From Thermoplasmata archaeon (GTDB taxonomy: Archaea > Thermoplasmatota > SW-10-69-26 > JACQPN01 > JAJPHT01), in assembly GCA_034667685.1 (NCBI GenBank), contig JAXDQU010000111.1, positions 1-23,499 on the forward strand: a stretch of DNA of 23,499 bases, written 5' to 3'. Below are positions 5,087-19,145 of the stretch, piece by piece (within the stretch, counting starts at the first letter, position 1; each line of letters starts with the position of its first letter). The position numbers and the translations under genes are program-made. Under the pieces are notes generated by a model, which was not told the origin of the DNA, ran no database searches, and saw only the letters and a program-made list of their open reading frames with translations.

Positions 5087-5168
5087 CGCGAGCTTCGCTC
5101 GCGGTCTTCGCTGCGGCCCTTCGGGCCTTGCTGCGACACCGCGCCCTCGCACCCGCTCGCTTCGCTCG
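5087..5168. repeat. Cluster of triloop mini-hairpins between convergent genes
   Basis: CGCGAGC-TTC-GCTCGCG (5087-5103), GGCCC-TTC-GGGCC (5115-5127) and a further GCTTCGC at 5159-5165. Confidence 0.65.
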
Positions 5169-5175
5169 CTCCTTC

Positions 5176-5502
5176 CTACTCGTCCGGCTCGTACTCCGCG
5201 TTCTCGTCGAACACGTCGTAGGCCCTGTCCATCTCCGCCTCGGTGGGCTCCGCGTCGGTCTTGATCGCCGGGAACTTCTCCACCGCGGCGAGCGGCACGT
5301 CGAGGATCAGGTCGCCGTCGCCCACGCCGAGCACGGCCTCGAAGGGCACGAGGCGGTCCGCGCTGCCCGCCTTGAGCAGCAGGAACTCGGCCTCCTCCTC
5401 GTCGTCCGCGACGAGCAGCGCCGCGAGCGTGCCCAGCGACTCGCCGGCCTCGTTGGTCACGGGCATTCCCTCGCGCAGGTCGACGTCCTCCTCTTCGGGC
5501 AT
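5176..5502 (-). CDS. PRC-barrel-like acidic protein
   Basis: LREGMPVTNEAGESLGTL...RLVPFEAV pattern; alternative start at 5529. Confidence 0.78.
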   Translation of the reverse strand: MPEEEDVDLREGMPVTNEAGESLGTLAALLVADDEEEAEFLLLKAGSADRLVPFEAVLGVGDGDLILDVPLAAVEKFPAIKTDAEPTEAEMDRAYDVFDENAEYEPDE

Positions 5503-11247: not shown

Positions 11248-12393
11248 CTATGGCTCCAGCGTGTACCCCTCGCGGATCGGGAAGTCGGTGGACATCCGGC
11301 CCGCGAAACGGCCCGGATCGAACGCGCTGATATCAACGAGCGGCTGCTTGCGCAGGAGCTTCGCCGCCAGCGCTTCGCCCGCCGCCGGCGCTCGCATGAA
11401 GCCGTGGCCGTTGCCGCCCGCGAGCAGCCAGACCTCGGGCGCATCCGGGTGCGGGCCCGCGAGCAGGAGGCGATCGGGCGTCGCGGCGTCCACGCCGGCC
11501 CATGCGTCGGTCGCCTTCGCCTCGGCGAACGCGGGCAGCCGGCGCGCGAGGCGGCGGCGCGACGCAGCCACGAACGTGGCGTCCGCGTCCTGCTGATATC
11601 GATCCGGGTCCTCGGGCGTCGTCGTCGTGCCGTCGCCCACGAGGAGCTGGCCGGGCCAGTGCGGCCGGAGGTAGAAGCCCTGCACGGCGTCGTGGAGGAT
11701 CGGGACCTCGTGCGCGGCCGGCGCCGCGAAGCGCTGCGCCTGCGTGCGGTACGCCTGGAGCGGCGCGTCGAGCCCGACCTCGCGGAGCAGCGCGCGCGTC
11801 CAGACGCCCGCCGCGAGCACGACCGCGTCGGCGTCCACCCCATCGAGCGCGACGCGCCCCGCGCTCCGGACGAGACGCGCGGGGCGCGCGACCTGCTCGC
11901 GGCCCATCATCTCCAGCGTCATCGCGCGGATCTCGCAGTACATCCGCGGCAGCGCCCACAGGTCGCGCGGATAGTGGACCGCGAGCGCCACGTCGTCGAG
12001 CCGCACCCCTTGATGACGCGGAAGCTTCGCGACGTCCTCCGGCGTCATCACCCGCGCGTCGGCGCCATGCGCGCGCTGGAAGGCCGCCATGCGCTCCGCG
12101 GCGCCGGCGAGACGCTCCGGCACGAGCGTCGTCGAGCCCACGTGGTGGACGTCGTACGCCCAGCCCGCCTCCTTCGTCTCGCGCTCCAGCTCGTCGAGCA
12201 GGGCCATGCTGCGGCGCACCAGCGCCAGGCTCCCGGCGTGCCACATCCCCTCGCACACGAGCCCCGCCCCGCGGCTGCTCGTGCCGGACCCGGCGGAGCG
12301 CTCCTCCACGAGCACGACCTCCGCGCCGCCCTTGGCGAGGTGGTACGCCACCGACGTCCCCATGACGCCCGCTCCGACCACGGCGACCCGCAT
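11248..12393 (-). CDS. FAD-dependent oxidoreductase, DAO/sarcosine oxidase beta family
   Basis: MRVAVVGAGVMG, GTSSRGAG, VVLAAGVWT, WAGVDAATPD, GNGHGFMRAPAAG. Confidence 0.92.
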   Translation of the reverse strand: MRVAVVGAGVMGTSVAYHLAKGGAEVVLVEERSAGSGTSSRGAGLVCEGMWHAGSLALVRRSMALLDELERETKEAGWAYDVHHVGSTTLVPERLAGAAERMAAFQRAHGADARVMTPEDVAKLPRHQGVRLDDVALAVHYPRDLWALPRMYCEIRAMTLEMMGREQVARPARLVRSAGRVALDGVDADAVVLAAGVWTRALLREVGLDAPLQAYRTQAQRFAAPAAHEVPILHDAVQGFYLRPHWPGQLLVGDGTTTTPEDPDRYQQDADATFVAASRRRLARRLPAFAEAKATDAWAGVDAATPDRLLLAGPHPDAPEVWLLAGGNGHGFMRAPAAGEALAAKLLRKQPLVDISAFDPGRFAGRMSTDFPIREGYTLEP

Positions 12394-12419
12394 CGCCCCG
12401 GCCAGCCCGCGGAAACGCC

Positions 12420-12454
12420 AAATAACCGTCCAAAGCCGCTCCAGACTCTTTATA
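12420..12454. promoter_or_regulatory. Divergent archaeal-type promoter region
   Basis: TTATTT on the minus strand (12420-12425) 27-32 nt before ATG 12393; TTTATA on the plus strand at 12449-12454. Confidence 0.6.
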
Positions 12455-12477
12455 CCAGTCCGAATCGGCTGGAGCCC

Positions 12478-12583
12478 GAAGAGCGGCCGGGAAGCCGGCC
12501 CTCTTGGAGCCGTTGCCTCCACAACCCCGGGCGGGTCGCCTCCCACCCCCCATCCCGTTTTCCCGCCCGGGATGACTTTTCTT
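12478..12583 (+). ncRNA. Candidate small structured RNA of unknown family
   Basis: TTTATA about 25 nt upstream, three stem-loops, T-tract at 12577-12583, no credible ORF downstream of the promoter. Confidence 0.5.
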
Positions 12584-12602
12584 GGCGCACTCCGCCAGGT
12601 CC

Positions 12603-12653
12603 GGCCGAACTCCGGTTCGGCCTCGCCGCGCCCTTGCGCGGCGGGCTGCGGCC
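12603..12653. repeat. Hairpin scaffold, copy 1
   Basis: GGCCGAAC-TCCG-GTTCGGCCTC + 19 nt + GGCTGCGGCC; same frame as 12924-12978. Confidence 0.75.
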
Positions 12654-12682
12654 CCTGACGTTGACCATGCTGGGCTGGTCGC

Positions 12683-12773
12683 GGTCAGGTGACTAGACAC
12701 CTGGGAATCCGACGCCACGTCACCTGTCTAGTCACCTGACCCGCCGTGCTCCGACAAGGTGTCTAGTCACCTG
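12683..12773. repeat. Three copies of the REP-like motif CAGGTGACTAGACA
   Basis: Forward at 12686-12699, reverse at 12725-12738 and 12760-12773; 12683-12699 and 12725-12741 form a perfect 17-bp inverted repeat. Confidence 0.88.
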
Positions 12774-12897
12774 CACCACGGCCCCGCCCCGGCGCCTGCC
12801 GAGAGCCAAGGCTCCGCCCGCGCCAGAAACGGATGCAAGAAAAGGGATTGCCGCGCCGGCGCGGAGCATCCGCGCCGACGTGGTTCGAGCGGGCGGA

Positions 12898-13001
12898 TTA
12901 CGCCTGCTTCTTCTTCATCATTCGGCCGAACTGCGGTTCGGCCTCTCATGAAGAAGCGGCAGGCGTTCGGCTGCGGCCTCACGCCTGCTTCTTCTTCATC
13001 A
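12898..13001. repeat. Direct-inverted-direct copy of the PGF-pre-PGF gene 3' end around hairpin scaffold copy 2
   Basis: 12898-12920 matches 12979-13001 at 22/23; inverted 17/19 copy at 12948-12966; hairpin at 12924-12943. Confidence 0.88.
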
Positions 13002-14295
13002 CGACCACGACCGCGATCGCGATCACGGCGAGGACGCCGAGGATCAGGAGCGCGATGCCGAGGCCCGCGAAGCCCGTGCTCGTCGACTGGACGGGCTGGG
13101 CGGCCGCGATGGCGAAGTAGGAGAAGCTGGGCGTCTGGGCGCTGAACGTGTACAGGCCGTTGGCGTCGGGGCCGCCCACGAGCGTCGTCGTGATGGGGAC
13201 CCACTGGCCGTTGACCTGGTGGAGCAGCGTGATGTCCGAGGCGCTCTTGCCCATGGCGAGGAGCTCGGCCTGCGTCACGTGGAAGGTGACGGTGGCGCTC
13301 TGGACGCCGCCGGCGCCGAGGCTCGTCGAGATCTGGAGGATCTTGAGCGCGTTGAAGCTCGTGGCGCCGCTGGACGAGGGGGTGGTGACCTGGAGCGTGA
13401 TCTGCGAGAGCTGCGAGCCCTCGGGGACGTTGATGGCGCTCTGGGTCGCGTCGGTGGGCAGGTACTCCTGGACGCTGACCTGGACGTTGCTGCCGTCCGC
13501 GCCGGGGACGATGCTGACGGAGCCGACGTGGCGCTGCGCCTCGGCGTTCGCGAGCACCGTGTTGAGGAGCTGCGGGTTCGAGGTGATCGCCTGGCGGGCC
13601 TGGTCGTTCTGGAGCAGGTTGCCCATGGCGGCCGCGTTGTGCGACATCGCGTCGAGGACGCTCGGGTTGTTGACGACGGCGTTGATCAGCGCGGTGGCGC
13701 TGCCGCTCTCCTGGAGCATGCTGGTGACGGCGGTCGGGTTGGACGCGATGGTCGCCGCGAACGCGTTGTCGCTGCCCATCTGGCTCGTGACGGCCGCGCG
13801 GACGTCCGCGTTGGAGAGCGCAGCGCCGGCGCCGAGGCCGGAGGAGAGGATGGCGTTGAGCGCGGTCGGGTTGCCCAGGATCGCGGCGCGGCTGCTGGCG
13901 TCCGCGAGCAGGGTGTTGAGGGCTGCGGGGGCCGAGGCGAGCTGCTGGAGCTGCGTGGGGTCGCTGAGCGCGGCGCTGAGGGACGCGTGGTCGCTGACCA
14001 GGTTCGCCACGACGCTGTCGGGGATGACCGACGCGGTCTCGAGGGGCGTGGAGCTGGGGGTGTCGAAGTTCAGCGTCACGGGCTGGCCCTGGTGGACGTT
14101 GCCCACGGGGAGGGTGACGGTGACGGGGCCGGAGACGGGCGTGCTGGGCACCTGGATGGTGTAGCCGGTCCCGGCGCCGCCGACCTGGCCGAGCACGCCG
14201 CTCGCGACCAGGATGGTGGGCACGATGAGAAGGAACGCCAGCGCCGCGGTGGCGGTCGTGGCGAGCGCGAAAGTCTTGGTGGGAACCTGGGCCAT
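12979..14295 (-). CDS. Cell-surface protein with PGF-pre-PGF domain, helical NP repeats and C-terminal TM anchor
   Basis: N-terminal hydrophobic segment; ATVTFHV...GQWVPITT...FSAQTPSFSYFAI; TGF-TM-KKK tail. Confidence 0.85.
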   Translation of the reverse strand: MAQVPTKTFALATTATAALAFLLIVPTILVASGVLGQVGGAGTGYTIQVPSTPVSGPVTVTLPVGNVHQGQPVTLNFDTPSSTPLETASVIPDSVVANLVSDHASLSAALSDPTQLQQLASAPAALNTLLADASSRAAILGNPTALNAILSSGLGAGAALSNADVRAAVTSQMGSDNAFAATIASNPTAVTSMLQESGSATALINAVVNNPSVLDAMSHNAAAMGNLLQNDQARQAITSNPQLLNTVLANAEAQRHVGSVSIVPGADGSNVQVSVQEYLPTDATQSAINVPEGSQLSQITLQVTTPSSSGATSFNALKILQISTSLGAGGVQSATVTFHVTQAELLAMGKSASDITLLHQVNGQWVPITTTLVGGPDANGLYTFSAQTPSFSYFAIAAAQPVQSTSTGFAGLGIALLILGVLAVIAIAVVVVMKKKQA

Positions 14296-14356
14296 GCTCC
14301 AGCCTCTACGGGCCGGTCGACCCACTCAGCCATGATAAGCGTTCTGGAGGACAGCT

Positions 14357-18469: not shown

Positions 18470-18934
18470 ATGCGCGTCCTCATTGAAATCGAAGGCGAGG
18501 AGTACGAGTGCGTGCTCCAGCGCGAGGGCGAGGTCGTCAAGGTCGACGTCGGCGGCACGCCCTTCGAGGTCAAGCTCGGCGAGGGCGGCCAGGTCACGTT
18601 GGGCGGCAAGCGCCACGTGGTCGAGCTGCGCGAGAAGGACGCCCGCATCGACGGCCAGGACGTGCGCTTCCGCATCGCCGACCTGCGCGCGGGCGGCGCG
18701 GGCGAGAAGGGCGGCGCGCGCGGAGCCCGCATCCGCCCCCCCATGCCCGGCAAGATCGTCAACGTCGCCGTGCAGGAGGGCCAGGAGGTCGCCGCCGGCC
18801 ACGTCCTGCTCATCCTCGAAGCGATGAAGATGCAGAACGAGATCGTGGCTCCTTCTGCGGGAACGATCAAGAAGATCCACGTCAAGCCCGGACAGAACGT
18901 CGAAGGCAAGGACGTGCTCCTCGAGATCGAGTGA
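18470..18934 (+). CDS. accB: Biotin carboxyl carrier protein
   Basis: PMPGKI...LEAMKMQNEI biotinylation motif. Confidence 0.93.
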   Translation: MRVLIEIEGEEYECVLQREGEVVKVDVGGTPFEVKLGEGGQVTLGGKRHVVELREKDARIDGQDVRFRIADLRAGGAGEKGGARGARIRPPMPGKIVNVAVQEGQEVAAGHVLLILEAMKMQNEIVAPSAGTIKKIHVKPGQNVEGKDVLLEIE

Positions 18935-19021
18935 TCGGCTTATCGCCCCCGCAGCGGCGCTTCAGCGCCGCGGAGCGGGGCGTGTAGGGCGCGTTGCCGG
19001 CTGGCGCGCCAGCCGATGTCT

Positions 19022-19145
19022 GAACGAGATCGTTGCGCCCTCCGCGGGCACGATCAAGAAGATCCACGTCAAGCCCGGACAGAACGTCGAAGGGAAGGAC
19101 GTGCTCCTCGAGATCGAGTGATGGGCTTATCGCCCCCGCAGCGGC
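19022..19145 (+). repeat. 124-bp direct duplicate of the BCCP 3' end and downstream flank (18835-18958)
   Basis: 117/124 identical; retains NEIVAPSAGTIKKIHVKPGQNVEGKDVLLEIE-stop but lacks the biotinylated Lys. Confidence 0.95.

Follow-up and report, generated by a model that had tools for sequence, protein, structure and literature searches.

An 81-nt hairpin-delimited 3'-end displacement cassette behind a Thermoplasmata surface protein gene, with relatives at protein-gene and tRNA ends

An 81-nt unit at the end of the PGF-pre-PGF surface protein gene of a Thermoplasmata archaeon is a member of a lineage-wide set of hairpin-delimited 3'-end displacement cassettes found at the ends of protein-coding and tRNA genes. 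The unit lies in the window, the whole stretch of 23,499 nucleotides that was analyzed (contig JAXDQU010000111.1, here C111), which belongs to a genome of 3.48 Mb, 71% GC and 124 contigs that is 99% complete (GCA_034667685.1, here G000). The reading preferred here, to which the comparative analysis lends a little less than an even chance, is that an 81-nt insertion moved the gene's native 3' end downstream and was joined at the foot of a hairpin, through pairing of an inverted copy of the gene end with its target.

The 448-aa product matches the TIGR04213 PGF_pre_PGF profile (E 1e-9, 38.6 bits versus a cut-off of 28). Its open reading frame is intact, and the protein is unaltered by the 81-nt unit. 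On the gene strand, the gene body is followed by the working end X1, a mini-hairpin, an inverted copy of the gene end (X'), a core hairpin, the displaced end X2 and the native flank (Table 1). A first-pass annotation made from the sequence had noted three of these features, and all of them hold. The last 23 nt of the gene (12979-13001) recur at 12898-12920 with a single swap of the stop codon (TTA versus TCA on the plus strand, that is, TAA versus TGA), the hairpin GGCCGAAC-TGCG-GTTCGGCC stands between the repeats at 12924-12943, and the inverted 17/19 copy of the gene end at 12948-12966 was recovered by the repeat search. The same search found the direct repeat to be exact over 21 nt (12900-12920 versus 12981-13001, spacing 81) and the 19-nt inverted arms 12900-12918 and 12948-12966 to be 89% complementary; the 21-nt extent of X' (12946-12966) was read by eye. 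By our own arithmetic, at 71% GC and with about 1.4e9 position pairs within 400 nt, chance would give about 0.01 exact 21-mers of such kind per genome. The mini-hairpin at 12967-12980 is the counterpart of GAGCGAAGCGA-type loops elsewhere. Because the oxidoreductase gene downstream is on the same strand, the cassette sits in a co-directional intergenic region.

Table 1. Coordinates of the features described in the window
Feature	Position	Strand	Remarks
PGF-pre-PGF surface protein gene	12979..14325	minus	448 aa, hydrophobic basic tail ...VVVVMKKKQA-stop
X1, working gene end, TGATGAAGAAGAAGCAGGCGT on the gene strand	12981..13001	minus	Final T opens the stop TGA (12979-12981)
Mini-hairpin GAGGCCGCAGCCGA (GGC-CGCA-GCC between GA..GA)	12967..12980	minus	Contributes the GA of the stop
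X', inverted gene-end copy, ACGCCTGCCGCTTCTTCATGA on the gene strand	12946..12966	minus	18/21 complementary to X1 and X2
Core hairpin GA-GGCCGAAC-CGCA-GTTCGGCC-GAA	12921..12945		Stem-loop 12924-12943; repeat-family member
X2, displaced silent old end with old stop TAA, then native flank	12898..12920	minus	21 nt identical to X1
81-nt present/absent unit	12900..12980		Placement ambiguous inside the 21-nt repeat
FAD-dependent oxidoreductase, next gene downstream	11248..12546	minus	PF01266, E 5e-53
Second hairpin pair: GGCCGCAGCC box, self-complementary 20-mer CGCCGCGCAAGGGCGCGGCG replacing X', core hairpin	12600..12653	minus	No target copy
BCCP case: X1 18835-18935, type-B element 18936-19021, X2 19022-19122	18835..19145	plus	101-nt copies, 86-nt element
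Partial second type-B start behind the displaced BCCP copy	19123-19145	plus

The stop-codon swap needs no special cause, because the repeat stops at the T, after which the insert gives GA and the old flank AA. TGA is the commonest stop codon in G000 (1610 of 2750 ORFs, 59%). That share, together with proximal copies in the gene-end census that also carry TAG and TAA, led us to reject as a rule the idea that the insert always supplies TGA. Two other candidates were rejected by eye. A C/D-box sRNA was discarded since the TGATGA in X represents the codons V-M-K and the D box is absent, and an archaeal bulge-helix-bulge intron since the GA/GAA internal loop is not 4-bp staggered. A promoter and terminator scan gave nothing useful; its promoter model is for sigma-70 and the host is archaeal.

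Filled and empty forms of the PGF-pre-PGF locus both occur. Contigs from run X1, the possible source of the assembly, and run X2, which comes from a different sample and a different study, match the filled form letter for letter over 12680/12712-13500. Since these independent contigs, one of them from a second sample, span the unit unchanged, it is not the assembly artefact that the first-pass annotation had considered. A contig from run X3, of a third study, joins 12899 to 12981 and so skips the 81 nt, with 21 letters that fit both sides and the TAA kept. This empty allele is one 192-nt contig at depth 3.9, which agrees with the gene part throughout and deviates at six letters of the downstream flank. 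For runs X3 and X4, the interpretation covers only those stretches for which contigs were available. A genome of the same genus, G003 (84% identity over the gene), is without the unit, and its gene stops in TAA. So does the G003-like metagenome locus L054, also without the unit, which was the single homologous locus among 33 obtained by a 19-nt pattern scan of metagenome contigs; the PGF protein as query returned no related loci from the genome contigs and metagenome contigs. It is more parsimonious to assume that the unit was inserted in the lineage of G000. Alternatively, it may have been lost precisely between the 21-nt repeats. Both G003 and L054 carry GCCGAACGC immediately 3' of the stop, and if this is a remnant in G003, the presence of the cassette could be older than assumed. 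In the G003-like loci L002 and L054, GCCGAACGCTTC stands directly behind TAA and resembles the cassette stretch GCCGAACGCC..CTTC; in these cassette-free relatives it could be a remnant or due to chance.

A recurring process had been suspected from two cases in the window. It is strongly supported by the genome-wide search for stop-spanning repeats, which turned up many further loci. A downstream copy of the last 30 nt (at least 22/30 matching, 5-405 nt downstream) was found at 21 of 2674 ORF ends, versus 0 with the flank reversed and 1 with another gene's flank, and inverted downstream copies were found at 8 of the 2674, versus 0-1 in controls. A direct-repeat scan of 2750 high-GC3 ORFs yielded 14 matches at stop codons, six of which have the full design (C111, C76, C68, C84, C82 and C118). 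Displacement is also seen at 10 of the 48 tRNA genes predicted by Aragorn, each with a direct copy of its last 18 nt (up to 3 mismatches) located 44-125 nt downstream. All ten copies start at (A)ATCC of the T-loop, and four of the tRNAs (Leu-taa, Gln-ttg, Ile and Val) show the full design, in the order tRNA end, GAGCG(A/C)AGCGA-type loop hairpin, inverted copy, core hairpin and copy. At tRNA-Leu(caa) on C108, the tRNA end is followed by a GAGCGAAGCGA loop and an X' with 21 perfect pairs, and the second direct copy is absent. An eleventh case is doubtful, as the tRNA-Gly called at C106 79328-79410, probably a false prediction, falls within collagen-like GGN/CCN repeat sequence. Beyond 312 nt from each tRNA, its contig yielded no att-like copy of the tRNA end.

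The full design is present at twelve loci, namely the six G000 gene ends, the four G000 tRNAs and the C68-orthologous gene end in the relatives G004 and G002. At 12/12 of these, with boundaries read by eye and C79 weak (9/15), the inverted copy stops precisely where the core hairpin starts, and it is a mirror image of the bases with which the distal copy opens. Across loci, the proximal repeat ends about -2 to +4 nt from the stop, or on the last base of the tRNA, the direct repeats measure 12 to 113 nt, and the inserts are non-coding and 44-134 nt long. Elsewhere in the window (5100-5180, minus strand), a gene end ..GAGTAG has GAGCGAAGCGA and more GCGAAGC-type loops behind it, possibly another hairpin cluster of the cassette kind.

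Comparison with relatives revealed occupied and unoccupied forms at the same targets. The C68 gene end is empty in G003 and G001 and filled in G004 and G002, where X1, X' and X2 alike have the genome's own allele; in G008, which belongs to another genus, the orthologous end has undergone two tandem rounds and shows three ends. tRNA-Gln(ttg) is empty in G003, G004 and G002 and is filled in G008 by a cassette of the same design. For a gene on contig C36 of G003 (G003:C36), G003 has the occupied form with an X of 60 nt and G001 has it with an X of 26 nt, and the site is unoccupied in G000, G002, G004 and G008. In G003, 130 nt of ordinary terminator-like flank separate X1 from the core hairpin. 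This incoming flank resembles that of G000, with a match that extends 49 nt beyond the stop. Upstream of X1, G003 is 92, 91 and 90% identical to G000, G002 and G004, values too alike to assign this region as foreign or native.

At other loci, proximal and distal copies differ in the way that alleles do. X1 and X2 differ only synonymously in the C68 orthologue of G002 (5/5), at C76 (2/2) and at G003:C36 (5/5), the copies at C68 of G000 show the synonymous switches ACG/ACC and AGG/CGC, and the census list adds Ser AGT/TCG, Ser AGC/TCG and Arg AGA/CGC switches between copies. At G003:C36, X1 is of a GTC-GCG-GCC class found in G000 and G002, and X2 of a GTG-GCC-GCG class found in G004, G001 and G008. 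Because the differences are synonymous, unlike those of a silent copy decaying in place, the distal copy is a former working allele, and recombination has brought together DNA of different lineages. At variant sites, X' follows X1 and not X2 (4/4 in G002, and in both rounds in G008). At the PGF-pre-PGF locus X1 equals X2; there is hence no allele signal, and by itself this locus does not decide among the readings.

The first-pass annotation had paired the PGF-pre-PGF locus with a duplicated end of the BCCP gene as two cases of one process. The BCCP end is a related displacement, as had been claimed, but it contains a different, multi-copy insert (type B) that lacks an inverted copy. The two copies of the gene end, each of 101 nt, are alleles that have diverged at 6 positions, 6/6 of them synonymous. 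The working copy has A/T-ending codons (GCT CCT TCT GGA); those of the displaced copy and of relatives end in G/C. The type-B element is 86 nt long, forms two hairpins and includes no inverted target copy. It is present in 12 copies in G000, where one of 13 BLAST rows is weak, and in no fewer than 9 in G003, and it also parts the duplicated ends at C81, tRNA-Leu(tag) and tRNA-Thr. X' is thus not required for duplication as such, because displacement occurs without it both here and at G003:C36. Type B was also seen at a gene start (G000:C122 8502-8646), where the opening 23 nt of the ORF occur twice with a synonymous CGC/CGG difference; the old upstream region has stayed with the displaced start, and a new GGAGGTGATCTG leader precedes the working start. 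At G000:C35 6858-6939, it lies between very diverged ends that encode a near-same peptide (NKVFARLRR-stop versus DKVFQRLRRQ).

The core hairpin belongs to a family of limited distribution. Among 41 related genomes, exact GGCCGAAC-N3-6-GTTCGGCC copies number 9 in G000, 7 in G008, 4 in G003 and 1 in each of two genomes, with none in 36 and 0 in the reversed control. The second hairpin pair of the window (12600-12653) has a near-identical copy at G000:C11, about 51680-51745. A related pair lies without duplication inside a displaced tRNA-Ser copy in G008 (L081), and at L082 and L084 the T-loops of displaced tRNA copies are interrupted by hairpin pairs. L082 (G008:C167 2120-2660) holds three tandem tRNA-Arg(cct). 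Core hairpins break up the first two, in the anticodon region of one and the T-loop of the other, and the third alone is intact. Next to the second hairpin pair, window positions 12652-12784 form a MITE-like palindromic element that contains TGTCTAGTCACCTG three times, spaced 35 nt apart. These three copies double as perfect inverted repeats of 17 nt, and at least 10 related copies are present on other contigs. The contigs of runs X1 and X2 carry a variant of this element that skips 62 nt (12655 to 12718).

For the preferred reading, insertion with joining at the hairpin foot, we infer the following steps of pairing and joining, and the kind of enzymes involved. Donor DNA, either a strand from a related cell or the folded single strand of a cassette, would run from a gene end through the mini-hairpin and the inverted copy to the core hairpin, and would encounter an unoccupied allele. 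Its gene-end part would pair with one strand of the target, and its inverted copy with the other, displaced strand, which would bring the 3' foot of the core hairpin up to the base at which the resident gene end begins. The ends would then be trimmed and ligated, or one strand exchanged, and replication would yield X1-hairpin-X'-hairpin-X2. As single-stranded DNA, the locus folds at -31.2 kcal/mol (z = -7.35; 0/200 shuffles as good), and in the minimum-energy fold X', the core and X2 make one long hairpin. The first-pass annotation had proposed an element carrying a sequence complementary to its own insertion site, and the recurrent flush hairpin of X', core and old end favors that proposal. 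The pairing model accounts for the X'/core joint, the filled and empty sites, the synonymous alleles, the agreement of X' with X1 and the tandem rounds, and it leaves displacements that lack an inverted copy (type B, G003:C36) unexplained.

A search for Y1/RAYT transposases (PF01797) gave 0 matches in G000, with a control search positive in 6/14 reference genomes, and no reverse transcriptase gene was matched in this 99% complete genome. The five tyrosine recombinase genes (PF00589) are ordinary and all on other contigs, none near the locus; four of them (C1, C25, C78 and C79) have a tRNA gene no more than about 2 kb away. On C79 this neighbor is tRNA-Arg(tct), which has two successive displaced 3' ends.

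The arm complementary to the target suggests that a folded single strand may find its site through base pairing alone. A bolder version, which we consider unlikely, is that the gene-less cassettes (about 60-135 nt) constitute a new class of tiny mobile DNA, folded to mimic its own target duplex. Each cassette would contain a replacement 3' end and its reverse complement, and general host enzymes would splice it in at the hairpin foot. Integration of such a folded single strand or dumbbell would be 'self-guided', with one cassette lineage per target, and cassettes would spread between soil Thermoplasmata species.

The strongest rival, though still rather improbable, is template switching in situ, in which two palindromes were inserted after the stop and their arms grew by hairpin-primed copying of the nascent strand. 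A first round would give X-hairpin-X' and a second X'-core-X, the same final anatomy as observed, and later recombination between lineages, with the right crossover in X2, would add the allele differences. The available portions of two reports describe template switching as making reverse-complement copies and perfect stems (10.1101/2021.04.15.439925, PMC10710096). tRNA-Leu(caa) on C108 would be a one-step intermediate, X' and X2 would be of equal length as a matter of course, hairpin pairs without a target copy exist (12600-12653; L081 in G008), and the excess of inverted copies downstream of ORF ends speaks in its favor. Hairpin-triggered switching had also been put forward in the first-pass annotation and, like the self-complementary element proposed there, is still a candidate at the PGF-pre-PGF locus; it cannot, however, supply the 39 nt of hairpin-family sequence (14 + 2 + 20 + 3) among the 60 nt between the repeats, X' making up the other 21. 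An extra insertion step is needed, each time within -2 to +4 nt of a stop or tRNA end, and extension must begin from the non-Watson-Crick GA/GAA flanks. Direct duplications without X' (type B; G003:C36) are beyond its reach, and in its purely local form it fails on the synonymous-only differences between direct copies at other loci. Where testable (G002, G008), X2 is not the complement of X', and a second process would therefore be needed.

We find it quite unlikely that the loci are plain recombination scars, left when a relative's gene end and flank entered through a homologous left joint and an illegitimate right joint before the resident end, with the hairpins as bystanders or as exonuclease stops that define the donor end. 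The ortholog-type divergence of proximal and distal copies would be expected of such scars, as would the variable length of X (12 to 113 nt) and the G000-like incoming flank at G003:C36, matching 49 nt past the stop. Against this stand a joint that coincides, in each type-A case, with the 3' edge of a family-type hairpin, a proximal repeat that ends so close to the stop or on the last tRNA base, a distal copy that starts exactly at the end of the inverted copy in 12/12, the T-loop start of 10/10 tRNA cases, and the repeated use of one target in tandem rounds.

Very doubtful is a miniature integrative element, served in trans by a tyrosine integrase, with the repeats as attL/attR and the target 3' end carried along. 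The insert is indeed flanked by direct repeats of the target 3' end, the tRNA copies begin in the T-loop (10/10) or, at two relatives' loci, in the anticodon loop, and four of the five tyrosine recombinase genes stand beside tRNA genes. Williams is said to have named the T-loop and anticodon loop in 2002 as the classic crossover sublocations. A double-stranded circle of 44-134 nt is implausible, however, no integrase is near the PGF-pre-PGF locus, and one hairpin family serving many unrelated targets with repeats of 12-113 nt is unlike a sequence-specific att core. In the accessible text of PMC9897764, partial tRNA copies normally flank integrated elements of 9-23 kb.

Folded as RNA, the gene strand reaches -65.9 kcal/mol (z = -8.1; 0/200 shuffles as good), and X' takes different partners, X1 or X2, in the minimum-energy and centroid structures. 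Despite this strong fold, the alternative partners and a hairpin that begins at the stop codon, selection for X':X1 and X':X2 pairings as a terminator or mRNA 3'-end stability switch is hardly credible, given that Rfam held no family at gathering score in the whole window (with just sub-threshold matches at 12500-13100, 23.3 vs 74 bits and 21.2 vs 128), the same design stands behind tRNA genes, the unit is present or absent among close relatives, and X' decays fast.

If the preferred reading is true, the 3' ends of about 1% of the protein genes and a fifth of the tRNA genes of this archaeon have been silently replaced, by a so far undescribed route through which DNA of related lineages enters compact archaeal genomes and leaves the genes unharmed. 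It would also give an origin for the dense hairpins behind genes of this clade and provide natural recombination markers between uncultured species. The cassettes would set annotation traps in the form of pseudo gene ends and pseudo-tRNA fragments.

In the literature searched, in which subscription journals are thinly covered, no archaeal hairpin cassettes with direct and inverted gene-end copies are described. In the DUP-TRP/INV-DUP pattern, a segment is triplicated with the middle copy inverted. The cassette target is likewise triplicated with the middle copy inverted and, as far as the available accounts of template switching go, there are hairpins at the turn-around points; the cassette junctions differ in having conserved family-type sequence, and the copies elsewhere are diverged alleles and not local ones. 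Homology-facilitated illegitimate recombination would place a donor allele on one side and the resident allele on the other of a joint that lacks homology; other loci show allele-type divergence, X1 equals X2 here, and the joint always lies at a hairpin foot. In rhs/CDI displacement, going by partial accounts of those systems, a new 3' end likewise arrives via upstream homology and the old end is stacked downstream, with arrays as in G008. The cassettes differ from it in being without a toxin/immunity context, leaving the protein unchanged, having hairpin-marked joints and including tRNAs. They also depart from MITEs, since their outer inverted arms are locus-specific and their direct repeats vary from 12 to 113 nt and are not of fixed length.

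REP and REPIN elements, in the excerpted descriptions of PMC3116915 and PMC3337134, share with the cassettes short GC-rich extragenic palindromes that are multi-copy and patchy in relatives, and a long hairpin of two inverted arms around a spacer. Here, in contrast, the arms (X' and X2) copy the local target and differ at every locus instead of being the element's own REP, no Y1/RAYT gene is present in G000, and long direct duplications accompany the cassettes. Integrase-borne islands resemble them in that an incoming copy regenerates the intact gene and a silent partial copy stays downstream, according to the sections available of PMC9897764. A direct repeat of the target 3' end, as at att sites, is present (X1/X2 21/21; 10 tRNAs), but the 60 nt between the repeats are too short to encode an integrase. 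Set beside the 9-23 kb with integrase given in those sections (PMC9897764), the cassettes are 44-134 nt of hairpins, contain an inverted target copy and target protein-gene ends as often as tRNAs.

The CTX-phi system is described, in the accessible part of PMC3089051, as one in which two opposed dif-like sites fold into the attachment site and one strand pair is exchanged; integration leaves three dif-like sites (PMC3089051; also PMC3442271 and PMC4792948, each in part). On these partial accounts, CTX-phi/IMEX and attC sites are like the cassettes in that opposed site copies with a short spacer fold into a hairpin that mimics the target, and in that the inserts are non-coding and have no recombinase of their own (PMC3089051; PMC4792948). 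For CTX-phi/IMEX the likeness extends to the three copies that remain, two direct and one inverted, which correspond to X1, X2 and X' here (PMC3089051, same part). The target is the fixed dif or attI in those systems, whereas each cassette described here has its own gene or tRNA end, in a unit of just about 60-135 nt and in an archaeal host.
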